From a phage: a DNA stretch of 49,628 bases. The position numbers were made by a program, and so were the translations under genes. Below are positions 36,713 through 49,628 of the stretch, piece after piece. Below the pieces are notes generated by a model. It saw nothing but the letters and a program-made list of their open reading frames with translations, made no database searches and was not told where the DNA came from. Within the stretch, counting starts at the first letter, position 1. Every line of letters starts with the position of its first letter. The stretch lies in the sequence record PZ721903.1; one strand, given 5' to 3'.

Positions 36713-36715
36713 TGG

Positions 36716-37132
36716 TTATAAGTATTTGGCCTCAAAGGTTGTGCCGTCAGCTATGCTAAAACCGATCTCTTCGCGAAACAATGTCCAACGGCAACCATCC
36801 TCATCAAAAATATAACCAGCTACGCCGCCGAGAGCGCGACCGCTTTCCACCTGGTAACGCTTGCCAAGTTTGAATGATTTTTTCATCGGATTACGATGGT
36901 CAAGCCCGGTGCACTTGAGCGTCTTTGTTTTCAACTCAGCGAACTTCGCGAAGAAGATTTCATCAGATCCGTGAATCTGTAATTCATCATGCTTTTCAAG
37001 TTTTAAATACTTTCCGCATTTTAATTTTACTTCGCGAGTGCCATCATAGCGCTCACGACCTTTGTACAGGTTGTTTACTTCAAATCCTGTGATTTTATCT
37101 GCGGAAGTACATTTAAGTTTGATGGATTTCAT
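36716..37132 (-). CDS. hypothetical protein
   Basis: Preceded on the - strand by a complete cassette including CCAATCAGGAG. Confidence 0.55.
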   Translation of the reverse strand: MKSIKLKCTSADKITGFEVNNLYKGRERYDGTREVKLKCGKYLKLEKHDELQIHGSDEIFFAKFAELKTKTLKCTGLDHRNPMKKSFKLGKRYQVESGRALGGVAGYIFDEDGCRWTLFREEIGFSIADGTTFEAKYL

Positions 37133-37195
37133 TGCGTTAGCTCCTGATTGGTTATCTTGAATAAGGTCACTTTATCAAATGACCTTACGGCAATA

Positions 37196-37212
37196 TTAAC
37201 AAATCGTGCTAT
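37196..37212 (-). promoter_or_regulatory. palindromic box copy, leftward cassette
   Basis: ttaacaaatcgtgctat; on the - strand followed by hairpin, TGaTAAAGT, CCAATCAGGAG and ATG 37132. Confidence 0.6.
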
Positions 37213-37425
37213 TTACCAGGGAATATAATCGTCGTCGTCATTATCACCAGTATCATCGCCTGGCATATCGAAGTCGGGATTATATTCACTTTCTGCGTCC
37301 ATATCCATATTCCCTAGCGCGTCGTCAAGCGTAATTTCTTTATATGCAACCTTGATACACCATTCCGCACCAAGCCCGGCATCGAGCGCTGCAAAATAAC
37401 GAGTCCAGAAATTATCCTGTTCCAT
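37213..37425 (-). CDS. small highly acidic protein (candidate DNA mimic)
   Basis: 70 aa with about 22 Asp/Glu, ending DNDDDDYIPW; RBS tggag. Confidence 0.5.
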   Translation of the reverse strand: MEQDNFWTRYFAALDAGLGAEWCIKVAYKEITLDDALGNMDMDAESEYNPDFDMPGDDTGDNDDDDYIPW

Positions 37426-37428
37426 TAA

Positions 37429-37653
37429 TTAGCTCCATGAATTAATGTAAATCGAGTTATCCTCAAGCGTTGCGCGAACATCCGCATCTGTTGCATTTAT
37501 CAGTCGAGATCCCGGCACACTTCCGATAACGCTATTTCCGTTACGCGTCTTAGTTACCGTCATTGAAATAAAACCGGAAGACTTATCCATCTTGATAACT
37601 ACACGGCCTTTTGCGTTAAGATGCTTGATGATATTCTCAACTTTAATGCTCAT
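37429..37653 (-). CDS. hypothetical protein
   Basis: 74 aa ORF behind a cassette and RBS aagga. Confidence 0.5.
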   Translation of the reverse strand: MSIKVENIIKHLNAKGRVVIKMDKSSGFISMTVTKTRNGNSVIGSVPGSRLINATDADVRATLEDNSIYINSWS

Positions 37654-37714
37654 TTTTAATTCCTTTGTTTTGTTTGGTGTGTGAGTAATATACCTTACTC
37701 ACTATTTATTGTCT

Positions 37715-37731
37715 TTAGCAATTAGTGCTAT
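37715..37731 (-). promoter_or_regulatory. palindromic box copy, leftward
   Basis: ttagcaattagtgctat upstream (on the - strand) of 37429..37653. Confidence 0.55.
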
Positions 37732-37874
37732 CAGTACTCGGAAATTACTTGGCACTCCTTGATTGTTCCACCTAGAACTACTTTCTGCATCATTGCTTTT
37801 TGGTGACTATCGTAAACGCGAACATTTTTTACGCTGTTAAATTTGCCAGTATAGAAAGTGTGAATATAAATCAT
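37731..37874 (-). CDS. small hypothetical protein (47 aa)
   Basis: ATGA overlap with the stop of 37871..38191; stop codon lies in box copy 37715-37731. Confidence 0.25.
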   Translation of the reverse strand: MIYIHTFYTGKFNSVKNVRVYDSHQKAMMQKVVLGGTIKECQVISEY

Positions 37875-38191
37875 TTTTTACCGTCCCAGGTTTGATACGC
37901 CGTCACAAGGTTAATGCTATGGTCAAACTCGTCAATGCTAAGCGAACCTATTCGAACCAGTTCTTTATCATGCTTAATATCAATCATCCGGCTATATGGA
38001 TGACCTGGCACGTATTTGAACAGTCGCTTGCTGTCAGCAATGTCGGCGTTGATTCCATAGAATCGGCCTACTGCCGCCTTCACGCGCTCCATGATGTTTT
38101 TTTCGTGGATTGCTGCCGCGTTATTAAGCGCCGCAACCGTGCTTCCGTTAATCTTCGGTGACTTCGTTGTGATTTTATAAGTGTGGTTCAT
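37871..38191 (-). CDS. hypothetical protein
   Basis: Start set at MNHTYK behind RBS gggggaa. Confidence 0.45.
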   Translation of the reverse strand: MNHTYKITTKSPKINGSTVAALNNAAAIHEKNIMERVKAAVGRFYGINADIADSKRLFKYVPGHPYSRMIDIKHDKELVRIGSLSIDEFDHSINLVTAYQTWDGKK

Positions 38192-38207
38192 TATTCCCCC
38201 TAACCAG

Positions 38208-38408
38208 TCAGGATAGCTTTCTCGCTTCATCAATGATAACAGGTTCAAGACGCTCAAGTCTAACGCGGAACGAGTTCATAAATCCTTCGTTGTTCTTCAG
38301 TAGTTCGAATGCGTCTGTAGCTTCAATGGCGCTATTCCCCATGTAGGCAATTACTTTTTTCTGAGTCTTACGTGAGATCGCCACTACGCGGTAAATATTA
38401 TCACTCAT
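38208..38408 (-). CDS. hypothetical protein
   Basis: Start at MSDNIY behind RBS aaagagg; 8-nt ATGAGTGA overlap with the upstream gene. Confidence 0.45.
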   Translation of the reverse strand: MSDNIYRVVAISRKTQKKVIAYMGNSAIEATDAFELLKNNEGFMNSFRVRLERLEPVIIDEARKLS

Positions 38409-38772
38409 ACAATGCCTCTTTAACACGATCCGCTACACATGAGTTAACGGTGATTGAATAGTTAGCCACGCCCCATAATGCAATATTGCCAAGCTCGGTA
38501 CGCATTGATGGATTGTTTAGCTGAATGATTGTCTCGCCAGTATCTTTATCGACGAAGCGAGACACGCCAGAATGGTCCACCACGCGCGTTACTCGGTTCA
38601 CGCACTCCATTGCATCACTTACACCATAATAGGCGGTTAGGGCGGCTCTCACGGCCTTCTCTTGCTTGTTGTAAATCTTGCGAGCGATGTTCTCGATCGC
38701 TACGCTTTCTTTCTCGTCAGTCTGGATTGCCGTGCTGGCTGAGAAGTCCAGATCTGTGAACTGCTTAAACAT
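38401..38772 (-). CDS. hypothetical protein
   Basis: Start at MFKQFT behind RBS gagga; complete cassette upstream. Confidence 0.5.
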   Translation of the reverse strand: MFKQFTDLDFSASTAIQTDEKESVAIENIARKIYNKQEKAVRAALTAYYGVSDAMECVNRVTRVVDHSGVSRFVDKDTGETIIQLNNPSMRTELGNIALWGVANYSITVNSCVADRVKEALYE

Positions 38773-38830
38773 GATTATTTCCTCGTTTGCTGCTGATGGG
38801 ATGACTATACCAGCCATCCCGGATGCGCGT

Positions 38831-38847
38831 TTAGCAAAAAGTGCTAT
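38831..38847 (-). promoter_or_regulatory. palindromic box copy, leftward cassette
   Basis: ttagcaaaaagtgctat; on the - strand followed by a hairpin around TGgTATAGT and RBS gagga. Confidence 0.6.
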
Positions 38848-39033
38848 TTAGAATTTTACTTCCTCAACAAGCTCAACCATTTTATAACCCAGGCGATATG
38901 AGTCGCCGAACAACAACAGACCCATAAATTCATCGTTGGTTATCGACTCCTTACCAACAGTTTTAAGTTCTCCGTTGTGAATCACAGTATCGCCGATCTT
39001 GATTTCTGATTTATGCACTAATTTCGTTTTCAT
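38848..39033 (-). CDS. hypothetical protein
   Basis: 61 aa ORF in operon context. Confidence 0.45.
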   Translation of the reverse strand: MKTKLVHKSEIKIGDTVIHNGELKTVGKESITNDEFMGLLLFGDSYRLGYKMVELVEEVKF

Positions 39034-39048
39034 TTGTTAGCCTGTTAA

Positions 39049-39234
39049 TTAAAAGAACGCTACATAGTTTGCAATACCTTTTGCATCGTCGTTAGGCATC
39101 GCCTTGACAGCCAGGTCATAACCAGCCTCTACCTTCTGCTTTGCTGATTCTTCGTTGTATCCCCAAATAACCAGGATTTTAACTACGTTTTCTTTGTTCA
39201 GAACTTTAAGGTATTTAGTGATGCGACGTGCCAT
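39049..39234 (-). CDS. hypothetical protein
   Basis: Start at MARRITK behind gaggaaaaacaaa; complete cassette upstream. Confidence 0.5.
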   Translation of the reverse strand: MARRITKYLKVLNKENVVKILVIWGYNEESAKQKVEAGYDLAVKAMPNDDAKGIANYVAFF

Positions 39235-39293
39235 TTTGTTTTTCCTCAATCTCGTTTCGATGAGGTAATTATGCCAAATCGCACCGATCGAGT

Positions 39294-39312
39294 TTTAACA
39301 AAAAGTGCTATT
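39294..39312 (-). promoter_or_regulatory. palindromic box copy, leftward cassette
   Basis: ttttaacaaaaagtgctat; contains the methyltransferase stop; on the - strand followed by cataat and CATCGAAACGAG. Confidence 0.6.
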
Positions 39313-39999
39313 TGCGATCGCTTTGAAAAATCCACGAGGAGATAAGGAACGTATCAGCTTCGTTTTGGCAGACTTGCCGCCCAGCTTGTTTTGCTGTGCA
39401 GAGTACCCGTCAGGCAGGTTTACAGGCTTCCTTTCTGGCATGACAAAGTCGTCCGAAGTCCAAAGACAAGTTTTCTTCGGGTAAGCATCGCGCGGCGCAA
39501 TATACATCGGGAACCAGGGGTGTGCGTCATTCTCAGGAAGATAGCCGCCATACTCCCAGGGATTGAAAGTGTGGTCAGCCTTTCGCCAGGCTGATGACAG
39601 GACGCTAACCGGATTCTCAATGATGTAAGTCACACCCAGGCTATCACCGATGTTCGCGGCAATCCGGGCGGTGGCAACAGCTTTCTCCTGGAATAGCGGA
39701 TCACGTTTACGCTTGCTGGCAAAGTGTCGAGCACCACTAACGGCCAGGTCAGTGCACGGCGGGAAGGCCATAATGAAATCCGGCTTGCCATACACACCCG
39801 CGATCGCATCACGTTCGAACGTTTCATCAATGAACACGTTCACATACTCAATGTTGGGATGCTCTACCCGGGCATTGTACTTTGCATAATCTCCGTGATC
39901 GGCTCCGTCAAAGTTGAAGCACATCACTTTATGACCTTGCTTTGCCAGTTCATGACCAGCCAGGCCCGAGCCGTCGAATAGTGACCAGATTAATTTCAT
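39295..39999 (-). CDS. DNA cytosine-5 methyltransferase-like protein
   Basis: Motif I-like FDGSG, PC motif FPPCTDLA and ENP motif in the expected order for C5-MTases; short (234 aa), so the target-recognition region is minimal. Confidence 0.5.
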   Translation of the reverse strand: MKLIWSLFDGSGLAGHELAKQGHKVMCFNFDGADHGDYAKYNARVEHPNIEYVNVFIDETFERDAIAGVYGKPDFIMAFPPCTDLAVSGARHFASKRKRDPLFQEKAVATARIAANIGDSLGVTYIIENPVSVLSSAWRKADHTFNPWEYGGYLPENDAHPWFPMYIAPRDAYPKKTCLWTSDDFVMPERKPVNLPDGYSAQQNKLGGKSAKTKLIRSLSPRGFFKAIANSTFC

Positions 40000-40208
40000 T
40001 TCGTTACCTCCTGGAAAACAGTTTGTCCGCTATTGGTCAGGAAGCGCCCGATCTTATTCATTGACCGGAACACGCCGATCTGATTCTGATGATTGTCAGT
40101 CGCGAAGTAACCGCCATCAATAAGGTAGATTTCATACACTGATTGATTCGTGAAGCTGTCAGTGCTGACGCTAACACATCGTACGGTACATTCAAATTCT
40201 GGTTCCAT
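39996..40208 (-). CDS. hypothetical protein (first gene of leftward early operon)
   Basis: Preceded by a cassette with CCAATCAGAGGA RBS; ATGA coupling to the next gene. Confidence 0.5.
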   Translation of the reverse strand: MEPEFECTVRCVSVSTDSFTNQSVYEIYLIDGGYFATDNHQNQIGVFRSMNKIGRFLTNSGQTVFQEVTK

Positions 40209-40268
40209 TGCCTGAGTCCTCTGATTGGTTGATGTGATGAATCATACCCTGCCGACCTGGCTGAGTCG

Positions 40269-40285
40269 TTAGCAAAAAATGCTAT
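40269..40285 (-). promoter_or_regulatory. palindromic box copy, leftward early promoter
   Basis: ttagcaaaaaatgctat; on the - strand followed by TATGATTCATCACATCAACCAATCAGAGGA and ATG 40208. Confidence 0.6.
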
Positions 40286-40476
40286 TCCAATAATTGCTCA
40301 TTATTCCATCAATAGCGGAATAGGTGGAATAATTCTGATTGCGATTGATTGCAAATGATGAAACGTGATTATTGCATGGTTTTCAACAGTTGGTTGATTT
40401 GTTGCTTAGATTGCAATGATTGTGAGAGGGGGGGGAATCTAGTGTTGCCCGGTTCGCCTGGTAATCATCTCCATTT

Positions 40477-40493
40477 TTAGCAAAAAGTGCTAT
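40477..40493 (-). promoter_or_regulatory. palindromic box copy, leftward, in control region 2
   Basis: ttagcaaaaagtgctat about 200 nt upstream of the previous copy; no ORF between them. Confidence 0.5.
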
Positions 40494-40896
40494 CGATTAC
40501 ACTTTACCTTGTCACAGATGTAATATTTGTCTAGAATCGCACTTGTGACAAAATTACACACTGTGACGCCTCTAAATATACATATAGATATATGTATCTA
40601 TATAATATATATAGTGTTTTCTTTATTTATATATATAGATAATTATATTGTAATAGTTGTGTATAGTTGTCTTACATTGTCTAGCGTACTGTTGGCATAT
40701 TTCTATCTGCATGTTTATATATACAGTACTTTTTTGAGAGCTATATATTTCTATAGTGACTCTAGACAGCTAGACAAATGTTACACAGCTTAATATCGGC
40801 TCGCAGTCATTGACAGCTCTGTATCGCACTGTCACAATGTCAATTGTTGACACATTATGACGCCATTTACACACGAATAGACAAAGAGGATATATT

Positions 40897-41412
40897 ATGA
40901 GCAATACCAATCAGGAATTAAAAATCACCGATATGATTCGCCTAACCTGCGACGCAATGTATCGCGACAAAGGCATGAGTGAGTTCTCTTTCGTGGCTGA
41001 TGATATGGCCCTGGAAGGCGCACGATTCTACTTCCGTGGCCAGGAGGTAAGCGATAGCGATCTTGAATCTGCCGCTGCCGGATGGGTGGACCAGAACCAG
41101 GGTGAGGTGGAGAAGCGATTCAAGTCTGCTTTCATTACGCCAATCATTACCCGGCACTTTTGCAAGTATGGCAAGGTGGCAAAGGTGAAGGTAGGCCGGA
41201 ATGACGCTGCAATCACAATGATAACGGTTATCGTTACCGACGAAGAGATTCCCGTGAAGAAGCGCCGCAGCCGGAAAAAAGTTAGCCTGGCCGACTGCCT
41301 GGATTCGTTTGATGTTGATGTTGGCAAGCTATCGGATAGCGAGTTAATGGTTCGCGACGTGAATGAGATCGTACGCCAGATGAAAGCACATATCGAAAAG
41401 TGCGGGCTGTAA
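40897..41412 (+). CDS. hypothetical early protein
   Basis: 171 aa, RBS aagagga; first gene of the rightward early operon. Confidence 0.55.
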   Translation: MSNTNQELKITDMIRLTCDAMYRDKGMSEFSFVADDMALEGARFYFRGQEVSDSDLESAAAGWVDQNQGEVEKRFKSAFITPIITRHFCKYGKVAKVKVGRNDAAITMITVIVTDEEIPVKKRRSRKKVSLADCLDSFDVDVGKLSDSELMVRDVNEIVRQMKAHIEKCGL

Positions 41413-41426
41413 CGCTGATAGGTGAA

Positions 41427-41445
41427 ATAGCACTTTTTGTTAAAG
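41427..41445 (+). promoter_or_regulatory. palindromic box + tattat
   Basis: atagcactttttgttaaag, hairpin cccggtcgagcggatcggg, tattat. Confidence 0.55.
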
Positions 41446-41502
41446 CCCGGTCGAGCGGATCGGGTATTATCTTCTCATTGACACGATACAGAGGAATCGA
41501 AG

Positions 41503-41697
41503 ATGGAAACGCAAATTGACGTAGTGGTTGTTCAGCGAGACTCAACTCATGAAAAGGGTCTGTTCAAGAAAGGAACCGAAATCACGATCGACCTTGAGGA
41601 TATGGTTGCGTATCACTCTGGCCTCACTTGGAACGTGGTGCGCGTAGGCAGCGACTACAAACTCAAAGGCTTTAACACTTACTTTGCGGAGGTTTAA
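41503..41697 (+). CDS. hypothetical protein
   Basis: Cassette upstream; RBS gagga. Confidence 0.5.
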   Translation: METQIDVVVVQRDSTHEKGLFKKGTEITIDLEDMVAYHSGLTWNVVRVGSDYKLKGFNTYFAEV

Positions 41698-41699
41698 TT

Positions 41700-42170
41700 A
41701 TGGCGACAATTACCGTATTTCTTGCTAAAGATGAGCTTGATGGCGAAATGTCATTCTTCGCGTTTGAGCATAAAACCGGCTCGCACTGGCACACTTACAG
41801 CCATTACACGGTTATCTCAATCGAAGCGTACGACGGCGAACTGCTCACTGATAAACTGAGTAATTTCATTGAAGCCGTTAAAGCTAGCGGCGGCTGCGAG
41901 TGGAAGGAAGATCACGAAGTTATGCGAATGTTTGAGATGGTCAATCCGGTTCGCCTTGAGTCGTTCGAGCTTGATGCTAATGTGACTATCAAGGTGAGAA
42001 AGTCGGGTGAGTTATTGCCAGGGATGCGTGTACTGACTGGTTACTCTGGCCGTAAGGTGTGGCGCACTGTATCCAAGATTCGCCAGCGCTCGGCAACATG
42101 CTATAGCGTATTCTTTGATGATGGTTGGAATATGATGTCCGGTAGTGAGGTAAAGTATCTCACCAAATAG
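41700..42170 (+). CDS. hypothetical protein
   Basis: 156 aa; stop TAG lies in box copy 42167. Confidence 0.5.
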   Translation: MATITVFLAKDELDGEMSFFAFEHKTGSHWHTYSHYTVISIEAYDGELLTDKLSNFIEAVKASGGCEWKEDHEVMRMFEMVNPVRLESFELDANVTIKVRKSGELLPGMRVLTGYSGRKVWRTVSKIRQRSATCYSVFFDDGWNMMSGSEVKYLTK

Positions 42171-42186
42171 CACGAATTGTTAAAAC
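42167..42186 (+). promoter_or_regulatory. palindromic box + hairpin-embedded TATAGT
   Basis: atagcacgaattgttaaaac; 22 nt; TGcTATAGT inside ggggta...tacccc; CATCGAAACGA; CCAATCAGAGGAAT. Confidence 0.65.
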
Positions 42187-42248
42187 CTGATCGGGGTATC
42201 TTGCTATAGTTACCCCATCGAAACGAGATACCAATCAGAGGAATAACC

Positions 42249-42479
42249 ATGTCAATCGTCAAGAACCAGCAAGCCATCGATTCAACCAACAACAACCGCT
42301 TTGCTATTTTCATCACTCGCGACAACAAGCGTTTTGCGGTCAAGGTAGTACCGGGTGGATACAATACATACATGGAAGGTAACGGAAAATGGGTTCGGTG
42401 TGACAACCTCTCAAACTTCCTGGTCTGGAATGCAGAACTCCAGGGATTTGATGATATCAGCACTTTAATTGAGGAGTAA
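42249..42479 (+). CDS. hypothetical protein
   Basis: Complete cassette upstream (box, hairpin around TATAGT, CATCGAAACGA, CCAATCAGAGGAAT). Confidence 0.5.
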   Translation: MSIVKNQQAIDSTNNNRFAIFITRDNKRFAVKVVPGGYNTYMEGNGKWVRCDNLSNFLVWNAELQGFDDISTLIEE

Positions 42480-42484
42480 TAATC

Positions 42485-42712
42485 ATGCCACGTTACAGCA
42501 ACCTAACTCAACTAACCCGCGTCAACGGGCACATGATCCCGGCTAAATCTACTCACTGCGCGAAAGGCGCAAAGCACGGATTATATTTCAAGTGGCGCGG
42601 CCAATGGAACTTCACAGCTGTGAATAATTTCTACATGCGAGTTCCAGGTGATGACCCGCAATCAGTAGTAGAAAACTCAATCGGTGACAACAAGATCGAG
42701 GTACTAAAATGA
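42485..42712 (+). CDS. hypothetical protein
   Basis: 75 aa ORF in operon. Confidence 0.45.
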   Translation: MPRYSNLTQLTRVNGHMIPAKSTHCAKGAKHGLYFKWRGQWNFTAVNNFYMRVPGDDPQSVVENSIGDNKIEVLK

Positions 42713-42819
42713 ACTTTAATACAGTAGCGCTATGGTCTGCCGTCTGGTTCTTCTGCATGGGTCACGTCATGGTCGGCATCGTGGTAATGCTTCTCCTGTG
42801 TGCGGGGGCGTTCGAATGA
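42709..42819 (+). CDS. small membrane protein (36 aa, one TMD)
   Basis: Below the track cutoff; MNFNTVALWSAVWFFCMGHVMVGIVVMLLLCAGAFE; ATGA coupling at both ends. Confidence 0.35.
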   Translation: MNFNTVALWSAVWFFCMGHVMVGIVVMLLLCAGAFE

Positions 42820-42989
42820 TGCGTATATTGATTTGCATGATGGCTGCTGTCGCCCTGACTATCCTGGTAGTGTCCGGCTGCGGCGAGGTCAAAGAGCGAT
42901 GCCATGAAACCGGGAGCCAGGTTACTACTTTCGTGATGGTTGGCAACGTATTGCTACCAATCACATCAAATGAAATCACTTGCGAATAG
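42816..42989 (+). CDS. small lipoprotein (57 aa)
   Basis: Start ATG 42816 behind RBS ggggg; signal peptide with lipobox VVSGC (MMRILICMMAAVALTILVVSGCGEV). Confidence 0.45.
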   Translation: MMRILICMMAAVALTILVVSGCGEVKERCHETGSQVTTFVMVGNVLLPITSNEITCE

Positions 42990-42998
42990 GATGTTAAA

Positions 42999-43190
42999 AT
43001 GGCTGATTTTATGCACCAAATGATTGCAGTATTCAAATGTAGTGATGACCAGGAAGTTAAAGAGTGCTTCACCGTTGACAAGCCTTATAACGCATCGCTA
43101 ACCAGCTTCGGGAACATCTCATTGCTTGATGATAATGGCGACCCCTGGATATTCGACGAAGACACCGATTGCTTCGAAATTAAAGAATAG
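42999..43190 (+). CDS. hypothetical protein
   Basis: 63 aa; stop TAG inside box copy 43187. Confidence 0.45.
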   Translation: MADFMHQMIAVFKCSDDQEVKECFTVDKPYNASLTSFGNISLLDDNGDPWIFDEDTDCFEIKE

Positions 43191-43206
43191 CACTTTTTGT
43201 TAAAAA
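43187..43206 (+). promoter_or_regulatory. palindromic box + hairpin-embedded TATAGT
   Basis: atagcactttttgttaaaaa; TATAGT within ggggtt...aacccc; CATCGACAACGA. Confidence 0.65.
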
Positions 43207-43261
43207 TAAATTCCGGGGTTGCGATATAGTAACCCCATCGACAACGAACGAGGACGATAGC

Positions 43262-43750
43262 ATGAAAATCAAATTAATTTGCACTGGCGGTTACAAGGGA
43301 TTTACCCGAGATCTGGAAGCGGACCCTATCGTGGTTGATGCGGTGAAGTGTGATTCCAGTACTGGAGGCTACCGTGTTAAGGTTGACGATCTGGTAAAAG
43401 CTGGCGTGTACGATCTTGATTATGGGCTTTCGGTTAGCCCGGTATTTGGTCCGGCCGACTTCAACGAGAAAGACGGAACGATGTTCTTTTTTGAGTGGGA
43501 AGTGCAAGCGAACGTCAAGCCTCGTAAGGTTCGACTTCTCAACAATGGCGGCTACCCGATGAGACCAGGTTATGAGAATCGCACGTTCCCAGTTATTGTG
43601 GACTTCACCGAAATCACTAACAAACTGGTCTACGTCAGCAATGAGCATTTCCAGGCTGTAGGATTCACTGGCGGTATGCATAAAGAAGCGCTGTGCTTCG
43701 TTCGAGAAGAAATGCACGGTTACTATTCTGAGTGCGAGTTAGTTTACTAA
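43262..43750 (+). CDS. hypothetical protein
   Basis: 162 aa; cassette upstream. Confidence 0.5.
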   Translation: MKIKLICTGGYKGFTRDLEADPIVVDAVKCDSSTGGYRVKVDDLVKAGVYDLDYGLSVSPVFGPADFNEKDGTMFFFEWEVQANVKPRKVRLLNNGGYPMRPGYENRTFPVIVDFTEITNKLVYVSNEHFQAVGFTGGMHKEALCFVREEMHGYYSECELVY

Positions 43751-43767
43751 GAACGAATTGTTAAAAG
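43748..43767 (+). promoter_or_regulatory. palindromic box copy (degenerate) + TGgTATAAT
   Basis: aagaacgaattgttaaaagg; TGgTATAAT within gggga...tcccc. Confidence 0.5.
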
Positions 43768-43821
43768 GGGATTTGGCCTGACTGGTATAATCCCCGCATA
43801 AACCACTAAGAGGAAAGCATC

Positions 43822-44328
43822 ATGTTAAAATTAGAAGACGTAAAATTCCCGATTAAATTTATCAGCCTGGGTTGCGGTGAAATTACATTCACCAGTGAAG
43901 ATAAAGGCAAGTTGGCCACTGGTGAGGTGTCTCAGCTTAAGTTGGATTGGTTTATCAATCGGCACAATGAAGTAAATCCTGAAAACTCAGCCAAGAAGGA
44001 TTACCATTACATTATTAGTTGTAGTTATGATGCGTACGGAAAGTATGATGGTTGGAAAACTGATCGATCCATCTTCCACCCCTCAAAGCCAGAAGTCGAG
44101 CCATCGCTACAATGCACTCAGATCGAGAACATGCCATTGAGCGCTACGCTAAAGGGCGTCCAACTTGATAGCGAATCCTGGGCCGAGATTACAGCCACAC
44201 CTAAAACTATTGAGGTACATGATGATGTGGTGATTCTCCTGTTGCATTACGGCAGCTTTAAGCACAAAACGGTATCAGGTGAAATCAGCATTAAGCGCGG
44301 AACGCTTGTACGATATGAGGTGAAATAA
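43822..44328 (+). CDS. hypothetical protein
   Basis: 168 aa; cassette with TGgTATAAT upstream. Confidence 0.5.
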   Translation: MLKLEDVKFPIKFISLGCGEITFTSEDKGKLATGEVSQLKLDWFINRHNEVNPENSAKKDYHYIISCSYDAYGKYDGWKTDRSIFHPSKPEVEPSLQCTQIENMPLSATLKGVQLDSESWAEITATPKTIEVHDDVVILLLHYGSFKHKTVSGEISIKRGTLVRYEVK

Positions 44329-44477
44329 TGGCTGCGTGGGTCTTGATTATCTTGATGAGTACCGGTCCGGATCACGTATACATGGAAAGTCAGCAATCAT
44401 GCAACAAGGCTCGGGAGGTGATTTCAGAGAACAAGCCGTTCGGATACGAAGTAAAAACGATGTGCGTTAAACGATAG
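44328..44477 (+). CDS. small hypothetical protein (49 aa)
   Basis: Below track cutoff; TAATG overlap, RBS gaggtga; stop TAG in box copy 44474. Confidence 0.35.
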   Translation: MAAWVLIILMSTGPDHVYMESQQSCNKAREVISENKPFGYEVKTMCVKR

Positions 44478-44493
44478 CACGAATTGCTAAACC
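44474..44493 (+). promoter_or_regulatory. palindromic box + hairpin-embedded TATAGT
   Basis: atagcacgaattgctaaacc; TGaTATAGT within aaggcca...tggcctt; CCAATCAGAGGAAT. Confidence 0.65.
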
Positions 44494-44557
44494 TTCCGCA
44501 AGGCCATTTGATATAGTGGCCTTATTGAAGCAGAGCGACCAATCAGAGGAATCGGCT

Positions 44558-44689
44558 ATGAAAATCAGATTAACCAGTAGCTACTTTAACCGTGAATCTT
44601 TCAATCAGTACATAATCACAGACGGAATGAATACAGGCATCGTCCTTGATGTATCCCACAGGCGACGTTATGTTTGTATCAGCAACTGA
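44558..44689 (+). CDS. small ORF behind a complete cassette (possible 5' part of a frameshifted gene)
   Basis: ATG 44558 is the one positioned by the CCAATCAGAGGAAT RBS; 43 codons; overlaps the next ORF, which is in the +1 frame. Confidence 0.3.
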   Translation: MKIRLTSSYFNRESFNQYIITDGMNTGIVLDVSHRRRYVCISN

Positions 44690-44852
44690 GCTTGCAAAGT
44701 ACGCAAAGCCAGAACATCGCCACCTGGCAGAGCCGCACTTGAGCGATGGAAAGGTTACAGATTACGCATTCACCAAAGGTGAGTATGAAATCGTGAGATC
44801 TGGACCTTTCAGATTCTGGAACAAACTTAAATCAGGGGAGTTATTCAAATGA
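44649..44852 (+). CDS. hypothetical protein (start uncertain)
   Basis: Track ORF 44646..44852; no convincing RBS of its own. Confidence 0.35.
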   Translation: MYPTGDVMFVSATELAKYAKPEHRHLAEPHLSDGKVTDYAFTKGEYEIVRSGPFRFWNKLKSGELFK

Positions 44853-45136
44853 GCAAAACTCATAAGTTAAAAATCGCCCCTGTACATTTCATTGGTGTAA
44901 TGAACGGAACCAAAACGGCAGAGTTCCGCATCAATGACCGAAACTTCCAATCTGGCGATATCCTGGAGCTATGCGAGTTCGATCGAGATGAGTTTACCGG
45001 GTGGGAAGTTCACGCCAGGGTATCCGATGTTACCGATGTGACGCCATACATCAATCGCGGGTATGACGAGCAAGAATGCGACTTCACGCAATACGTGATG
45101 TTATCAATCAAGCCTTACAGGAAGGTTAGACCATGA
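44849..45136 (+). CDS. DUF3850/ASCH-like domain protein (putative)
   Basis: N-terminal KLKIAPVHF...KTAEFRINDRNFQSGDIL pattern resembles ASCH/DUF3850 proteins. Confidence 0.45.
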   Translation: MSKTHKLKIAPVHFIGVMNGTKTAEFRINDRNFQSGDILELCEFDRDEFTGWEVHARVSDVTDVTPYINRGYDEQECDFTQYVMLSIKPYRKVRP

Positions 45137-45771
45137 AATTTGAATGTGTGCTTAGTAACGGATCTGGATTTAAGTACGGCAAAATCTACGAAGGCGCTCG
45201 CGTCAATTGCAACAGCTTCGTTATCACGGATGAGCGCGGTAGAAATGTTAACGTTGTCCGGCGTCACGAATACCAGGAAATTTTCCTGCCGTACGGCAAT
45301 AGTTCAAAATACATCTTCCATCGAATCGTTGATGGTGTTAAATTTAAAGACGTAATCGAAGCAATCAACCAACTTCATAATAAAGAGGTAAAATTTATGA
45401 AATTCGAATGTATCAGCGATAACACCAAAAAATTTACTGTTGGCAAAATTTACGATGTTCCCTCTGAGCACGCTAAGCACACGGCTGTAATTACCGACGA
45501 CACGGGCCGCCACCGCATTGCAACCGTAACGCACAACGGTGAAGGTCTTCGCTGGAATAGCGGCGGCACTAAGTTCGCAACGTTCGGCAAGAAGCGCAAG
45601 CGCACTTTCTGCGTCAAGGGCAATGTTGCGGCGAACAAGACCCACAACGACAAGGCGTCACAAGTTGACCGCAAGCCAGCATTGAAGTTTGAAGAGAAAG
45701 CGGATTTATCCGGCCTGGCTGTTGCGCTTGTTCTCCTGGTAGCTTCGATTTCGCTGATGTTCATCATGTAA
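45133..45771 (+). CDS. membrane-anchored protein with internal tandem duplication
   Basis: Two homologous units (MKFECVLSNGSGFKYGKIYEG... and MKFECISDNTKKFTVGKIYDV...) and C-terminal TMD LSGLAVALVLLVASISLMFIM. Confidence 0.5.
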   Translation: MKFECVLSNGSGFKYGKIYEGARVNCNSFVITDERGRNVNVVRRHEYQEIFLPYGNSSKYIFHRIVDGVKFKDVIEAINQLHNKEVKFMKFECISDNTKKFTVGKIYDVPSEHAKHTAVITDDTGRHRIATVTHNGEGLRWNSGGTKFATFGKKRKRTFCVKGNVAANKTHNDKASQVDRKPALKFEEKADLSGLAVALVLLVASISLMFIM

Positions 45772-45824
45772 TTTTAACGGGGAATCGGATCTGAACGGTT
45801 CCCCTTTCTTTTGGAGAAAACACT

Positions 45825-45935
45825 ATGCCAGACTTTTCTAACTGGAATAACGAGCCGCCATCATTTCAGGAGTTGCTATTCTGCCTCCTGGTCCTGACAT
45901 TATCTCTTAAGGGTGTTTTATGGCTACTATCATGA
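45825..45935 (+). CDS. small hydrophobic peptide (36 aa)
   Basis: Preceded by a terminator+RBS module (cccctttcttttGGAGAAAACACTATG) identical in type to those of the late operon. Confidence 0.3.
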   Translation: MPDFSNWNNEPPSFQELLFCLLVLTLSLKGVLWLLS

Positions 45936-46138
45936 CAGTAGAAGATGCAGCACGCGATGCAGTGGAAGGAATGCGCCCAAATACCTCCAGAATAGCACAC
46001 TACTACAAATCTGAGGTGTCGGCAGTGCAATTGGTCCACGAAATTTTAAGGCTCCCACAAGTCGATTCAGCGCGAGTAGTGACGTGCTTAAAAAATTATT
46101 TTTGCATCACTATTAAAACGAATAGCACGAATTGCTAA
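45932..46138 (+). CDS. hypothetical protein
   Basis: ATGA overlap with the preceding peptide; stop TAA inside box copy 46122. Confidence 0.4.
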   Translation: MTVEDAARDAVEGMRPNTSRIAHYYKSEVSAVQLVHEILRLPQVDSARVVTCLKNYFCITIKTNSTNC

Positions 46139-46141
46139 AAC
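46122..46141 (+). promoter_or_regulatory. palindromic box + TGaTAGAAT
   Basis: atagcacgaattgctaaaac; TGaTAGAAT within aaggg...ccctt; CCAATCAGAGGAAT before ATG 46206. Confidence 0.65.
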
Positions 46142-46205
46142 TTGCTCAAGGGTATTTGATAGAATGCCCTTCGTTGAGTTAAGCAACCAATCAGAGGAAT
46201 AAATC

Positions 46206-46736
46206 ATGGATAAAATTACCATTTGGGGCCAGACTGTCAACCTGTTTCTCGGCACGCGCCGAGTGGCAATCTTTGACTTTGACGGGACACTTAGCGATGG
46301 ATCTGGTCGACTTCACCTGCTGCCAACAAAGGATTTGCACTTGACTGAAAGCTGGTCTGAGTTTAACCGAGCGGCAATATTTGATAACCCAATCCAGAGC
46401 ACGATCGATGTGATGAACTCTATTTTTGCCGCTGGGTATCATGTGATCATTTTAACCGGGCGAAGTGATGAGGTGCGTTACGCATCTGAGTTATGGCTTA
46501 AGCATCACGGCGCTCGATATGATTACTTAGTCATGCGACCGCATACCGACAACCGCAAAGACACGGTAATGAAAGAAGAGGCAGTGCGCGCTATCGGCAT
46601 TGATAACATTCTTGCGGCTTGGGATGACTCAGTGAATATAATAAAAAAATTCAGAGATCTAGGGATAACCACATATCAGGTTTGTGAATATGCCTGTGAT
46701 AGTCGAGAGGATTTAAATAGTCATGGTGTCGATTGA
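46206..46736 (+). CDS. HAD-superfamily phosphatase
   Basis: Motif I AIFDFDGTL and ILTGR motif; 176 aa. Confidence 0.6.
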   Translation: MDKITIWGQTVNLFLGTRRVAIFDFDGTLSDGSGRLHLLPTKDLHLTESWSEFNRAAIFDNPIQSTIDVMNSIFAAGYHVIILTGRSDEVRYASELWLKHHGARYDYLVMRPHTDNRKDTVMKEEAVRAIGIDNILAAWDDSVNIIKKFRDLGITTYQVCEYACDSREDLNSHGVD

Positions 46737-47217
46737 TAACAAATCAATGGTAAGAGAGTTATTTACTTATTCTGACGGCGTTCTGTATTGGAAGGCCAAA
46801 TCATCTAAATACAGTAGAGCTAAAATAGGAGGCGCGGCAGGAAGCAAGGATAAAGACGGATACATAATAATCAGAGTAAGAAACGAAACTAGAGGCGCTC
46901 ACAGGCTTGTATGGATATACCATAATGGCAAGATACCTGATGGAATGGAGGTAGACCATATGGATGGAGACATAACAAACAATAGAATAGAAAACCTAAG
47001 ATTGGTAACGAGAACCATAAATAACAGGAATCAAAAAAAGAGATCTGATAACACAACCGGAGTATCCGGTGTAACTTTCATGAAAGATAGAGGAAAGTAT
47101 AGGGCGCAAGTTAGAAACAAGAGACTCGGGCAGTTCGACACAATAGAAGAGGCCGCCAAAGCAGTAAAGGATGAGCGGGATAGATTAGGTTTATTCACAA
47201 AAAGACACGGGGTGTAA
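46723..47217 (+). CDS. HNH homing endonuclease with AP2 DNA-binding domain
   Basis: HRLVWIYHNGKIP...DHMDGDITNNRIENLRLVTRTINNRN (HNH) followed by SGVSGVTFMKDRGKYRAQVRNKRLGQFDTIEEAAKA (AP2-like); AGA/AGG/ATA-rich codon usage unlike neighbours. Confidence 0.75.
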   Translation: MVSIDNKSMVRELFTYSDGVLYWKAKSSKYSRAKIGGAAGSKDKDGYIIIRVRNETRGAHRLVWIYHNGKIPDGMEVDHMDGDITNNRIENLRLVTRTINNRNQKKRSDNTTGVSGVTFMKDRGKYRAQVRNKRLGQFDTIEEAAKAVKDERDRLGLFTKRHGV

Positions 47218-47219
47218 AC

Positions 47220-47792
47220 ATGAAAACAGCTATCATTTTAAACGGCGCACCTGGTGCGGGAAAGGACACTATCGGATGCATCCTTGCTGACACTTACGAT
47301 CACGTAGCCTTGCGCAGCTTCAAAGCGCCAATGTTTGAGATTGCCAGGGCAATCCTGGGTGAAGCTAACTACGAGTATTTCATGTTCTTGTATGAGGACC
47401 GTCGATATAAAGAAGAGCCAGCATCAATCCTGAACGGTAAAAGCCCGCGCCAGTTTATGATCTGGATTAGCGAGGAAGTCATCAAGCCGCAGTTCGGAAA
47501 TCGCTTCTTCGGTATGCGAGCGGAAAGCAAGGTGAAAGAGTCGCACTCCCTTTCGGTATTTACTGATGGTGGATTCAAAGACGAAATCTTGCAGATGATT
47601 GAAGGTGATATCCAGGTCAAGCTATGTCGAATACATCGCAACGGTTGCAGCTTTGATAACGACAGCCGCGACTATATCTATCTTGACGACATGATCGGGG
47701 TTAACGGTTATCAGGAATGTGACTTCTTTTCTGTCGAAGGTCATCCAGAAATTACCGCTCAGCACATAGCCGCCACGTTCATCAATAAATAG
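47220..47792 (+). CDS. P-loop kinase, dNMP-kinase-like
   Basis: Walker A GAPGAGKDT and LNGKSP segment resembling T4 gp1-type deoxynucleotide monophosphate kinases. Confidence 0.55.
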   Translation: MKTAIILNGAPGAGKDTIGCILADTYDHVALRSFKAPMFEIARAILGEANYEYFMFLYEDRRYKEEPASILNGKSPRQFMIWISEEVIKPQFGNRFFGMRAESKVKESHSLSVFTDGGFKDEILQMIEGDIQVKLCRIHRNGCSFDNDSRDYIYLDDMIGVNGYQECDFFSVEGHPEITAQHIAATFINK

Positions 47793-47808
47793 CACGAATT
47801 GCTAAAAC
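47789..47808 (+). promoter_or_regulatory. palindromic box + TGaTATAGT
   Basis: atagcacgaattgctaaaac; -10 at 47827-47832 puts the palindrome centre (47797) near -42; CATCGACAACGA at the predicted transcript start. Confidence 0.65.
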
Positions 47809-47864
47809 GTCGATGGGGTGATTTGATATAGTTACCTCATCGACAACGAAGAGAGAAAATCTAA

Positions 47865-48074
47865 ATGACGGTATCAACTGATAAGTTTTTCACTTGCACT
47901 AAAACTTCTGAAGTATTCGAACTGGTTCATACTGATAATGGTGATTTCATGCATGACGGTTGCGACGTTTTCATTGAAGTGAAAGAAAGCGACTATGACG
48001 ACGGAGTTTATTACAGCCCGGCAGTTAACACGCAGTTTTTTACCCCGATCGAGGAAGATGGAGAAGAGGCATGA
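47865..48074 (+). CDS. hypothetical protein
   Basis: 69 aa acidic protein behind a complete cassette. Confidence 0.5.
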   Translation: MTVSTDKFFTCTKTSEVFELVHTDNGDFMHDGCDVFIEVKESDYDDGVYYSPAVNTQFFTPIEEDGEEA

Positions 48075-48430
48075 TTACGATTAACCTGTCAGAGAAGCAA
48101 GCTCGTGAAATCCTGGACACGATCGGCGACCAGTTACACATCAAGGGCGCTACCGCCGAACTTCTTAACCAGATCGAAAGGCAGCTTACCCCAGCATCAA
48201 CGAATCAAGCTGAGTTCGCAGCATGGAAGAGTGAACGCATCTTGCCAAATATCATCAAGGCATGGAAGCGCAAGCATAAAAAAGAAATCAACGTTGAGGA
48301 TTTGTTTACCGACGAATTAAGCCCTTCAAAGGTTGCTCAATATCAGTTGCGATACATGGAATCAGTTTGCAATCAGGTTTTAGGTGTTAATTTTCATTTT
48401 GGAGAGGTAAATAATGTTCGGATTAAGTGA
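48071..48430 (+). CDS. hypothetical protein
   Basis: 119 aa; ATGA coupling. Confidence 0.5.
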   Translation: MITINLSEKQAREILDTIGDQLHIKGATAELLNQIERQLTPASTNQAEFAAWKSERILPNIIKAWKRKHKKEINVEDLFTDELSPSKVAQYQLRYMESVCNQVLGVNFHFGEVNNVRIK

Positions 48431-48644
48431 AGCGGAATGGAACGTGGTAAAGCGCGCGGCGAAGGAATTAAATAAATTCGTCAGTGGCATGAAGAAAGAA
48501 GATCGGAAAAACGACAAGATCATGATTGACGTTATTTCTACTCACCACAAAAAGGTCGAATTACTCATCGATCGCTACAAATTTGTCTGGACTGCCGGGT
48601 ATATTGCCGGGCGCGTAGGTAACAAAGAAGGGGATTACGAATAA
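48414..48644 (+). CDS. hypothetical protein
   Basis: 76 aa ORF in operon. Confidence 0.45.
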   Translation: MFGLSEAEWNVVKRAAKELNKFVSGMKKEDRKNDKIMIDVISTHHKKVELLIDRYKFVWTAGYIAGRVGNKEGDYE

Positions 48645-48847
48645 TGGCTAATTTACCGAAGAAAGGAGATCAGGTTCGATGCATCACTTCACGTAATGGC
48701 GATGCTTTCTCAGCTGGGTGCTTGTATGACGTTGAAAAAGTCAGTAAAGCAAAGAGGCTCGTATATGTGTACGGCGACGATGGAAACCTGCATGAGATTA
48801 ATTACCCGCAGGATATGACTAAGGGTCAATTTGAAATTAATGATTGA
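48644..48847 (+). CDS. hypothetical protein
   Basis: 67 aa; TAATG overlap. Confidence 0.45.
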   Translation: MANLPKKGDQVRCITSRNGDAFSAGCLYDVEKVSKAKRLVYVYGDDGNLHEINYPQDMTKGQFEIND

Positions 48848-49008
48848 CCTACGTCCCTGAGCGGTGATAGTATTAATCCCGTAGACAAACTAGGCGCAAT
48901 GAAGCGCAACGCGTGAGACGATTCTCACACTTCCAGCTAACAAGCTCGGTTGCATAGTGGTTAAGCAACGCCGCAGACCCGTAAGCGGCAACAATTCAAG
49001 AGGATTGC

Positions 49009-49173
49009 ATGATGCAAAACACCAAAGACGAATCAGTAAAAATTGAAATTAAAGTAACTCGCAACGGTGAAACCACTCGTTATAAAAAACGATTAAATCC
49101 GGGAGAGGCTGTTATTGGTCGAATTGCTGGCGTTATGATTAAGGCGCAGGAAGATGAAGCGATTCAAGGTTAA
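49009..49173 (+). CDS. small hypothetical protein (54 aa)
   Basis: Below track cutoff; RBS aagagga before ATG 49009. Confidence 0.35.
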   Translation: MMQNTKDESVKIEIKVTRNGETTRYKKRLNPGEAVIGRIAGVMIKAQEDEAIQG

Positions 49174-49339
49174 ATTAATTATTCGAAAGATGGGGATGTT
49201 TTGCCAGTCGTGCAAACAATCTTTCGAAACAGAATTATCTGCAACCAGTCAGGCAGAAGCCATCACGAAAGCAAAAAAACTTTCCGGCGCTAACCTTGAC
49301 ACTCACAAAATAAATATTGAATTAATCAAGGAGATTTAA
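49154..49339 (+). CDS. hypothetical protein
   Basis: 61 aa, basic; RBS aggaag. Confidence 0.4.
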   Translation: MKRFKVKLIIRKMGMFCQSCKQSFETELSATSQAEAITKAKKLSGANLDTHKINIELIKEI

Positions 49340-49340
49340 C

Positions 49341-49568
49341 ATGACAATTTTTTTATTGATTATCGCTGGTGTCATTATTTTTGGTGCTGGTTTGTTTGCT
49401 GGCTTCGCACTTGTGGCGGCAGCAATTGCGATGGACGCGAAGGATAAAACTGGTGTATGGCTGACCTACTCACCTAAGAAGGACCAATGGGAGATGACTG
49501 GCGACCTTGCTCACTGCTACTCTAAAGCTCAGACCCACCCTAAAGGAATTAAGCGACTATTGTCGTGA
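49341..49568 (+). CDS. small membrane protein
   Basis: N-terminal TMD IFLLIIAGVIIFGAGLFAGFALVAAAIA; RBS aaggag; followed by terminator 49578-49600. Confidence 0.5.
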   Translation: MTIFLLIIAGVIIFGAGLFAGFALVAAAIAMDAKDKTGVWLTYSPKKDQWEMTGDLAHCYSKAQTHPKGIKRLLS

Positions 49569-49577
49569 TAAACACTA

Positions 49578-49620
49578 ACCCGCTTCGGCGGGTTTTTTTA
49601 TGCCTGCAATATGGTAAAAT
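49578..49620 (+). terminator. terminator followed by TGgTAAAAT extended -10-like box upstream of terminase
   Basis: acccgcttcggcgggt + T7, then atggtaaaat (49611-49620); junction box copy and terS RBS follow across the window end. Confidence 0.65.
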
Positions 49621-49628
49621 AGCACTAA
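49619..49628. promoter_or_regulatory. palindromic box copy spanning the window junction (continues at 1..10)
   Basis: atagcactaa at 49619-49628 joins atgttaaaca at 1-10 to give atagcactaaatgttaaaca, matching atagcacgaattgttaaaac. Confidence 0.6.

Follow-up and report, generated by a model that had tools for sequence, protein, structure and literature searches.

Transcription regulators of the MarA/SoxS/Rob family read an asymmetric site, the marbox, as monomers with a pair of helix-turn-helix (HTH) motifs, which contact GCAC and (C/T)AAA seven bp apart (PMC8811837, PMC9178005). The classical marbox consensus is AYNGCACNNWNNRYYAAAYN, that is AYnGCACnnWnnRYYAAAYn (PMC2064960), and a definition derived from chromatin immunoprecipitation is 5'-gcannwwntgnnaaa-3' (PMC12052159). 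Class II marbox promoters have no recognisable -35 (PMC10268841); at one of them, micF, for which cryo-EM structures with Rob and RamA are available, Rob, SoxS and RamA act as class II activators from a site with its centre near -41 (PMC8811837, PMC9178005). Class I marbox promoters carry a reversed marbox further upstream together with a good -35, and marboxes that overlap the core promoter can repress, for example at pbpG (PMC12052159, PMC10268841). Here we compare these promoters with a 20-bp box that recurs about 24 times in a 49,628-bp stretch of DNA (sequence record PZ721903.1; hereafter the window), the complete genome of a T1-like coliphage (Drexlerviridae, Tunavirus), and we propose that the box is a marbox.

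The repeat itself has been described before. The 2024 re-annotation of phage TLS (German et al.) reported a 21-nt direct repeat, aaATAGCACnnnTTGnTAAAA, at 21 sites, lying in the same direction as transcription ~76 nt 5' of start codons and forming three subtypes according to the central triplet; similar repeats were mentioned for T1, Rtp and Rogue1, only three sigma70-like promoters were found in TLS, and the authors left the function undecided between a stoperator, an enhancer-binding site and an UP element (PMC11447400). The box of the window has the consensus aaATAGCACnnnTTGnTAAAA, is intergenic and is oriented along transcription, and with identical consensus, orientation and three N3 subtypes the two are one element. 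The fixed distance to a -10, the marbox identity and the copies at class I or repression positions are absent from the TLS paper (PMC11447400) and are reported here. Both the repeat and the marbox promoter are thus known, and it is the link between them that is new; we found no published link between marbox and phage in the literature, and no map of transcription start sites (TSS) or transcriptome for any T1-like phage. T1-like phages encode neither an RNA polymerase nor a sigma factor, and the canonical promoters known from them number only about three, so that their mode of transcription has been a puzzle; the marbox reading offers a concrete, testable hypothesis for a repeat that the re-annotation did not explain.

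The window carries terS and the structural genes on the + strand at 1-24 kb, recombination, replication and lysis genes at 22-34 kb, a leftward early operon from 40.3 to 34.5 kb and a rightward early operon at 40.5-49.6 kb that continues into terS; its early region is 97-98% identical to phages phiD2-2 and vB_EcoS_SH2, and in IMG/VR the genome corresponds to contig UViG_2974674285_000001. We searched it for the 20-mer ATAGCAC-N3-TTGYTAAAAC, both as a pattern and as a position weight matrix (PWM) built from the copies. With ≤2 mismatches, ATAGCACNNNTTGYTAAAAC gave 19 matches against 0.00 expected (none in 100 shuffles), and the 15-mer core TAGCACNNNTTGCTA with ≤1 mismatch gave 20 against 0.31 expected. 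The PWM scan returned 23 copies scoring >20, including 26798(-) and the junction-spanning copy 49620..6, against a top score of 15.7 over 20 shuffles, and one weak copy at 43748 (score 10.1) completes the set. The original prediction, made from the sequence alone, had listed about 24 copies; all 24 positions were recovered within a few nt, including 43748, which is degenerate but has TGgTATAAT at the right distance. It had located the element at 40269-47808, an interval that holds one operon only, and it is the genome-wide set, also described there, that stands.

The same prediction took the box for a palindrome probably bound by a dimer, and our analysis did not support this. The element is palindromic only superficially because it is oriented and its conservation is asymmetric: its left part, A-T-A-G-C-A-C, and its right part, T-T-G-Y-T-A-A-A-A-C, are nearly invariant, box position 14, which symmetry would pair with the invariant G of TAGCA, is C or T in roughly equal numbers, the flanks differ (A at the 5' end, AAAAC at the 3' end), and the copies are oriented with the gene. 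The two-fold symmetric half-site conservation of a palindromic operator or CRP-like site was not found. The variation fits that of the degenerate, non-palindromic marbox for MarA, SoxS, Rob and RamA. GCAC and (C/T)AAA are the most conserved parts of the phage box, and the C/T variation at position 14 coincides with a Y of the marbox consensus. The definition gcannwwntgnnaaa has 19 exact matches in the window against 0.86 expected, all 19 of them box copies, and AYNGCACNNWNNRYYAAAYN with ≤1 mismatch has 20 against 1.13 expected, the sole recurrent mismatch being position 19. The marbox of the E. coli mar promoter, ATGCCACGTTTTGCTAAATC (MG1655 sequence), and the phage consensus, ATAGCACTTTTTGCTAAAAC, are identical at 16/20 positions. 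The view of the box as a dedicated phage code is therefore hard to maintain, since its sequence is the consensus site of the host MarA/SoxS/Rob family and no phage-encoded reader was identified. Sigma54 (-24/-12) promoters have GG and GC doublets in the consensus TGGCAC-N5-TTGC; we rejected this class because AG stands in the box in place of GG, and N3 in place of N5, which leaves the spacing 2 nt short.

The position of the box relative to the -10 also corresponds to that of class II marboxes. For this comparison we used 99 boxes from six genomes, in which a -10-like hexamer is expected by chance at 0.6-1% per position. The hexamer lies 22 nt from TTGYTA at 68 boxes (~0.8 expected), 21 nt at 8 and 23 nt at 7; nineteen copies of the window have one at 22-23 nt (17 at 22 and 2 at 23), mostly TATAGT, TATTAT or CATAAT, so that the rigid 22 nt between TTGCTA and the -10 given by the original prediction is exact. 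The two counts that it had proposed as a check, matches to the box and enrichment of the -10, thus both came out in its favor (19 against 0.00 expected, and an offset of 22 in 68/99 boxes). Among the 83 cassettes, positions 6-7 after the hexamer are C in 58/83 and A in 67/83, as expected for -1/+1. The frequent extended -10 without a -35 was likewise borne out: TGn occurs in 30/83 cassettes and in 9 of the 19 of the window, and the best TTGACA match over 16-18-nt spacers averages 2.65/6. All 19 promoter-type copies are forward, with GCAC distal and AAA proximal to the -10, a convention that we checked on micF and PMC8811837. The marbox core spans about -47 to -33, overlapping the -35, with its centre inside the class II range of about -36 to -55. 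Our geometry reference is micF only, since the -10 of fumC was not confidently assigned; on the E. coli sequence micF has the marbox core GCACTGAATGTCAAA, 20 nt, and the -10 TAGAAT. Because the core ends 2 nt after TTGYTA, the gap from core to -10 in the phage is 20 nt as in micF, with the centre about -40. An activator-type site near -42 had been proposed, and we find the centre of this class II arrangement near -40/-41.

The copies with a -10 are listed below; a cassette is a 20-mer box, an 18-nt gap and a -10 (44 nt), and the labels rest on sequence match and spacing.

22970..23012, + strand: divergent marbox ACGGCACAAATAGCTAAACa with a 17-nt gap and TGtTATAAT, 5' of the erf recombinase gene
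26756..26799, - strand: class II-type cassette of the primase gene; the stop codon of the Cro-like regulator gene (described below) falls within the box, and the spacer hairpin with its T-run has the form of an intrinsic terminator
27248..27291, + strand: predicted class II marbox cassette of the helicase gene, -10 TATTAT, overlapping the regulator's own promoter face-to-face
29757..29800, + strand: predicted class II marbox cassette of the Dam methylase gene, TGgCATTAT, ortholog of T1 Pdam
30780..30823, + strand: predicted class II marbox cassette, box CAGCACTAATTGCTAAAAC, -10 TATAGT
32768..32811, + strand: predicted class II marbox cassette, box TCGCACTAATTGATAAAA, -10 TATAGT
34507..34550, - strand: predicted class II marbox cassette
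36669..36712, - strand: predicted class II marbox cassette, TTGCAA variant, -10 TATCAT
37169..37212, - strand: predicted class II marbox cassette, TGaTAAAGT
37687..37731, - strand: predicted class II marbox cassette, 23-nt spacing
38804..38847, - strand: predicted class II marbox cassette, TGgTATAGT
39268..39311, - strand: predicted class II marbox cassette, TGgCATAAT
40241..40285, - strand: class II-type cassette, first of the leftward operon, TAGCATTTTTTGCTA, 23 nt, TATGAT, no hairpin
41427..41470, + strand: predicted class II marbox cassette, first of the rightward early operon
42167..42210, + strand: predicted class II marbox cassette, TGcTATAGT, hairpin bracketing the -10
43187..43230, + strand: predicted class II marbox cassette
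43748..43791, + strand: degenerate box TAAGAACGAATTGTTAAAAG with TGgTATAAT at 22 nt
44474..44517, + strand: predicted class II marbox cassette, TGaTATAGT, near-identical in TLS and KP36
46122..46165, + strand: predicted class II marbox cassette, TGaTAGAAT
47789..47832, + strand: predicted class II marbox cassette, TGaTATAGT

Throughout the family the box is seen again in the same orientation, with the 22-nt spacing and the CAT start. T1 has 21 boxes, SH2, TLS, Klebsiella phage KP36, Rogunavirus AKS96 and Erwinia phage Snitter have 14-23 each, and the same boxes are present in the TLS-like phages Vc1 and Motto; the box is invariant across Tunavirus, Tlsvirus, Webervirus, Rogunavirus and an Erwinia phage. 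Multi-copy occurrences in IMG/VR are restricted to contigs of ~42-52 kb. Compared with ~90%-identical relatives, 3.0% of the box positions and 1.3% of the -10 positions have diverged, and the corresponding values are 10.2% for the 18-nt gap and 9.1% for the upstream coding flank, which indicates that the box and the -10 are under purifying selection while the intervening sequence is free. Whole cassettes (box, spacer hairpin, -10 and leader) are near-identical across genera with different flanking genes (window 44474-44560, TLS locus 5136-5220, KP36 locus 7253-7335), and may serve as linkers for modular recombination. Vc1 was deposited as a Vibrio cholerae phage and Motto as a Pseudomonas aeruginosa phage; both are TLS-like Drexlerviridae with 45% GC and enteric-type boxes, and these host assignments look doubtful.

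Five boxes fit other marbox rules: those at 40474-40493, 6696-6715 and 25706-25725 and the junction box, which have no -10 of their own, together with the helicase box in its role as part of the 5' untranslated region of the regulator gene. The first four, and a reversed box at 10458-10477, are given here with the sequences that they touch.

1..10, + strand: 3' portion of the box across the junction, ATGTTAAACA; the box includes window position 1
6691..6718, + strand: late major-capsid promoter TTGACG-16-TGcTATTAT; the reversed box 6696-6715 constitutes the spacer and extended -10, a repression position
10458..10477, - strand: reversed box just 5' of the ribosome-binding site (RBS) of the late gene 10499-10816; the sense strand supplies TGcTATCAA
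25706..25757, - strand: tail-fibre promoter TTGCAA (25757-25752)-17-TAAAAT (25734-25729); the reversed box 25706-25725 covers the start site and the first transcribed stretch
40474..40537, + strand: class I layout of a reversed box (40474-40493), 15 nt and the early promoter TTGTCA (40509-40514)-17-TAGAAT (40532-40537), compared with the mar promoter
49612..49628, + strand: terS promoter TGgTAAAAT, whose final T is the first T of the junction box continuing at 1-10

The reversed box at 40474-40493 lies ~61 bp upstream of an early promoter with a good -35, within the ~53-85 bp from the TSS that characterise class I, and is the one instance of this layout in the window; the mar promoter has a reversed box, 16 nt and TTGACT-17-TATTAT, where the phage promoter has 15 nt. 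At the late promoters, TLS, Snitter, Vc1 and Motto all keep the arrangement of the capsid box, the tail-fibre box lies on the start of TTGCAA-17-TAAAAT just as the original prediction described it, with a similar arrangement in Snitter, and the junction box overlaps the -10 and start of the TGgTAAAAT promoter before terS. These boxes resemble pbpG in lying within the spacer, -10 or TSS of otherwise canonical promoters, and we infer from this placement that they may repress the late promoters. It is unlikely that a motif with no relation to the marbox would agree with it in consensus, in class II spacing, in the rules of orientation and in the positions for repression all at once.

Two features of the same regions may be mentioned here. 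Window position 1 is an ATG inside the junction box (TAGCACTAA followed by ATGTTA; 1-27 and 49619-49628), whereas terS, to judge by a proper RBS (aaagagga), starts at the ATG of ~25-27, matching the SH2 annotation, and the genome start coordinate and the 182-aa open reading frame (ORF) call are probably artefacts. Around the canonical early promoter (40509-40551) there are flanking inverted repeats, TTGTCACA/TGTGACAA, followed at 40560-40860 by ~300 bp of AT-rich sequence with TATATA, TCTAGAC and TGTCACA repeats and no convincing ORF. The region 40509-40860 might serve the Cro-like regulator as an operator and/or contain a pac site or origin; TTGTCACA on its own is not enriched genome-wide (3 matches against 2.1 expected).

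From sequence and spacing, we think it probable that host MarA, SoxS, Rob or RamA read the box, and that they would activate the early and middle promoters and repress late ones. In this mechanism the forward box of ~19-20 cassettes, centred near -40, would overlap the would-be -35, and the bound activator would replace the contact of sigma70 region 4 with the -35 and bring RNA polymerase to the -10, often an extended one, in the manner of micF. Activation of this kind would serve nearly all early and middle transcription units; the reversed copy ~61 bp upstream of the canonical early promoter would act in class I fashion, and the boxes over the terS, major-capsid and tail-fibre cores and in the 5' untranslated region (5'UTR) of the regulator would act negatively. 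Rob is constitutive and abundant (PMC9178005), and we infer that it would be the likeliest activator in unstressed cells. Decay or titration of the activator might help the early-to-late switch, although this is speculative. A bolder version, in which the whole Drexlerviridae family of virulent enterobacterial phages has outsourced its expression programme to host MarA/SoxS/Rob/RamA, and early expression gives way to late once the activators are lost or titrated, following host shut-off and the replication of phage DNA, is tentative and on the whole doubtful.

Several observations weigh against a host reader. Unstressed cells contain little MarA or SoxS, and Rob is reportedly largely sequestered, so that relying on them would seem risky for a fast lytic phage. 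T2-A3, T11 and A19-C20 of the box are conserved though they are outside the marbox consensus, and could point to a reader with different or stricter specificity; as a counterpoint, TAG and TAA double as stop codons in 13/24 boxes, each of which, as had been predicted, contains the stop of an upstream open frame of at least 50 codons. The class I layout came up in Tunavirus only, and in AKS96 the box stands a helical turn further upstream. Drexlerviridae deposited as Vibrio and Pseudomonas phages carry identical boxes, but since these host labels are doubtful, the boxes of Vc1 and Motto are uninformative on the host question. Some TGn promoters might fire without any factor. The case for a host reader rests on sequence and geometry, and we found no literature report of rob, marA or soxS mutants affecting T1 infection. 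In addition, the T1 regulator Pir stimulates Pdam, a box promoter (PMC6737242).

This last point belongs to the alternative that the box is read by a phage protein, either Pir (Orf23) or another immediate-early protein, made from the canonical promoters to start a cascade, in which case the resemblance to the marbox would be mimicry or convergence. The Pir ortholog and its promoter in the window are as follows.

26783..27235, - strand: 150-aa Cro-like regulator, ortholog of T1 Orf23 'Pir', considered as reader and rejected
27287..27315, - strand: the regulator's canonical promoter TTGAAT-17-TATAAT; the box of the helicase cassette lies at about +17..+31 of its transcript

The regulator is the only family-wide candidate (found in 825 phage records, with a weak P22_Cro match), and with its own canonical sigma70 promoter and a reversed box in its 5'UTR it is suitably placed. 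Pir activates Phol and Pdam and represses PrecE and its own promoter, Ppir, and Porf65 is Pir-independent (PMC6737242). The T1 sequence shows class II box cassettes at Pdam and Porf65, a reversed box in the leader of Ppir, and canonical, box-less promoters at Phol and PrecE; the effects of Pir therefore do not track the box, because the box-less Phol and PrecE are regulated and the box-bearing Porf65 is not. The AlphaFold model of the regulator (mean predicted local distance difference test score, pLDDT, 79.9) has a confident core that superposes on Xfaso-1 and N15 Cro, with a single HTH and not the double HTH of MarA, and its recognition helix differs between genera (SNQTVQGW vs CCVRLTNAY) where the box is identical. 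On these three grounds, the single Cro-like HTH, the variable recognition helix and the effects that do not track the box, we rejected Pir/Orf23 as the reader.

A second candidate, T1 Orf65, stimulates its own box promoter and represses Ppir (PMC6737242), and since both reported targets carry the box, Orf65 might modulate a box-bound complex. We rejected it as the reader because it is an accessory gene, missing from the window, SH2, KP36, AKS96 and Snitter. Orf65 (T1 locus 4418-4864) has 148 aa, no Pfam match and membership of phrog_10642, and is patchily distributed (T1, SA30RD and LeonhardEuler, with distant copies in Motto, Vc1 and TLS). A phage-encoded MarA homolog was likewise dismissed, as tblastn and profile searches of eight T1-like genomes found no homolog of MarA, SoxS or Rob (best E 0.25 and 0.19, respectively, with no consistent locus). 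The homolog of T1p16 (31626-32777) has a weak Sigma70_r4_2/HTH_23 hint (E 0.01) beside its Metallophos domain. The T1 reporter experiments used E. coli that carried no phage and, for Pdam, a lysate of phage-free cells (PMC6737242), so that box promoters appear to work without phage proteins. The conserved positions beyond the marbox consensus speak for a phage-encoded reader, and the asymmetric conservation of the box speaks against it; taken together, we regard such a reader as unlikely, though deserving of serious weight. As no phage reader tracks the box and the reporters work phage-free, the host MarA/SoxS/Rob family is the most economical reader.

Two observations on the regulator stand apart from this question. 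Its N-terminus (residues 1-35), STGEIDKRxxNGNNGTRRGKDKKPR, is nearly invariant family-wide, predicted to be disordered (pLDDT <50) and more conserved than the HTH, and may act as an arm that binds DNA or as a peptide that docks onto a host protein. The -10 of the helicase promoter (27286-27291) and that of the regulator promoter (27292-27287) overlap face-to-face inside a 9-bp inverted repeat, AACGTTTAC...GTAAACGTT (27264-27315), which suggests mutually exclusive binding of RNA polymerase and a toggle.

Somewhat less credible, with only a small chance of being correct, is a box that needs no factor, being either an UP-element-like site for the C-terminal domain of RNA polymerase's alpha subunit or a surrogate -35 from which host RNA polymerase alone would initiate with the help of the extended -10. 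The A/T-rich centre and 3' end of the box, the UP-like role suggested by the TLS authors (PMC11447400), the TGn in 30/83 cassettes and the activity of reporters in phage-free hosts are in keeping with it. However, the most invariant positions contain G/C (AGCAC, TTG), which is typical of major-groove reading, the box overlaps the -35 rather than -40 to -60, and boxes without their own -10 keep conserved positions within other promoters. The distance of 22 nt from TTGYTA to the -10 is too far for sigma region 4, and it is unchanged at sites without hairpins, so that a displaced -35 in the form of TTGYTA was also rejected. Without a factor, coincidence would have to explain why the box exactly matches the site of a known transcription factor and the geometry of that site.

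That the boxes are mainly negative or structural, either as repressor-bound 'stoperators' blocking elongation, as in mycobacteriophage L5, or as recombination linkers, is very unlikely: the TLS authors suggested stoperators (PMC11447400), the boxes are oriented, intergenic and often at gene ends, some copies are in transcribed leaders and whole cassettes are near-identical across genera, but a rigid, constrained 22 nt to a -10 hexamer followed by a C-A start marks promoters, and no repressor candidate tracks the box. That a different host factor reads the box, for example Lrp, is also very unlikely. Lrp, abundant and conserved in enterics, has a consensus from systematic evolution of ligands by exponential enrichment, YAGHAWATTWTDCTR, that resembles TAGCA..TGCTA and fits the outer arms, but we consider it a highly improbable reader because the fit is poor over the five positions in the centre, TGCTA has a variable C (C/T) and no Lrp promoter class is known to have such fixed geometry, whereas the marbox fits all specified positions and the spacing.

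Most cassettes include a G+C-rich inverted repeat, different in sequence from site to site, which either lies between box and -10 or brackets the -10 (for example 42187-42225, 47809-47845 and 26735-26779). A stem stability of z<-2 against shuffled sequence was found in 79% of the cassettes behind a co-directional ORF and in 37% of those without one (Mann-Whitney p=8e-4), and the sense strand folds better than the antisense strand (Wilcoxon p=7e-10), which is consistent with G.U pairs in RNA and therefore points to the sense RNA. A T-run follows the stem at some sites only, and elsewhere the -10 or CATCGAAAC is next to the stem; textbook terminator structures with the T-run merging into the -10 are found at 26798 of the window, at 39877 and 40839 of AKS96 and at 39625 of TLS. 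Annotators of related phages have labelled these hairpins terminators. We considered the hairpin as part of the promoter mechanism (a cruciform or presentation of the -10) and rejected this, because it is mostly absent without an upstream co-directional gene, its position relative to the -10 varies and the G.U asymmetry indicates sense RNA. We read the hairpins as terminators or 3'-end stabilisers of the upstream unit, separate from the box. There is room for them within the promoter because neither the spacer nor the -35 region has to have a particular sequence in class II, and since the predicted start is inside or downstream of the 3' arm, new transcripts escape the hairpin. The overlap of hairpin and promoter results in compact terminator-promoter modules.

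Downstream of the cassettes, the initial transcribed sequence CATCGAAACGA recurs across cassettes and genera at +1 regions (e.g. 47838-47850), and a leader motif, CCAATCAGAGGA, similarly recurrent, stands beside the RBS at 42232-42245, 44540-44552 and 46190-46202 and also at the late gene 10499 (10478-10492); a role of CATCGAAACGA/CCAATCAGAGGA as a translation or stability element is possible. Among the genes of the rightward operon, 41503-41697 (+) encodes a 64-aa early protein matching Pfam PF25180, 'Phage antiviral trigger protein Gp54' (E 3e-36), and the ORF 46723-47217 (+) encodes an HNH_3 endonuclease with a weak AP2 domain match.

If host regulators of the MarA family do read the box, phage growth would be tied to the regulators of multidrug resistance, and mar or ramA up-mutants, salicylate, bile and paraquat would alter phage expression, with a bearing on phage-antibiotic combinations and on phage therapy of Klebsiella and E. 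coli. The family includes Klebsiella phages used in therapy, and in the bolder version given above, phage productivity would depend on the exposure of the host to bile, oxidants or antibiotics and on mar/ramA resistance mutations. The cassettes would also constitute a set of compact, strong and naturally insulated terminator-promoter units responsive to MarA, SoxS and Rob.

Compared with known systems, the phage cassettes are most like the class II marbox promoters of E. coli and Salmonella such as micF, with which they share the asymmetric 20-bp consensus, GCAC and YAAA, the forward orientation, the box overlapping or replacing the -35, and an ordinary -10 and TSS with or without TGn. They differ from host marbox promoters in belonging to a virulent phage, in numbering ~20 copies per 50 kb, in their near-perfect consensus where host sites are degenerate, in the extra conserved positions and in the terminator hairpin inside the spacer. 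Class II sites of the CRP/FNR type also place an activator near -41.5 at promoters without a -35, but these are true palindromes for dimers, whereas the phage box is oriented and asymmetrically conserved. Among phages, Mor and C of Mu (near -43.5) and MotA/AsiA of T4 (at -30) are activators for promoters without a -35, and the Mu and T4 middle and late promoters are alike in having a -10 without a -35, an upstream box that replaces the contact of sigma region 4, and a single box that defines a temporal class, as in the window. The Mu and T4 activators are phage-encoded and their boxes phage-specific, whereas here no phage homolog was found and the box is the site of a host regulon.

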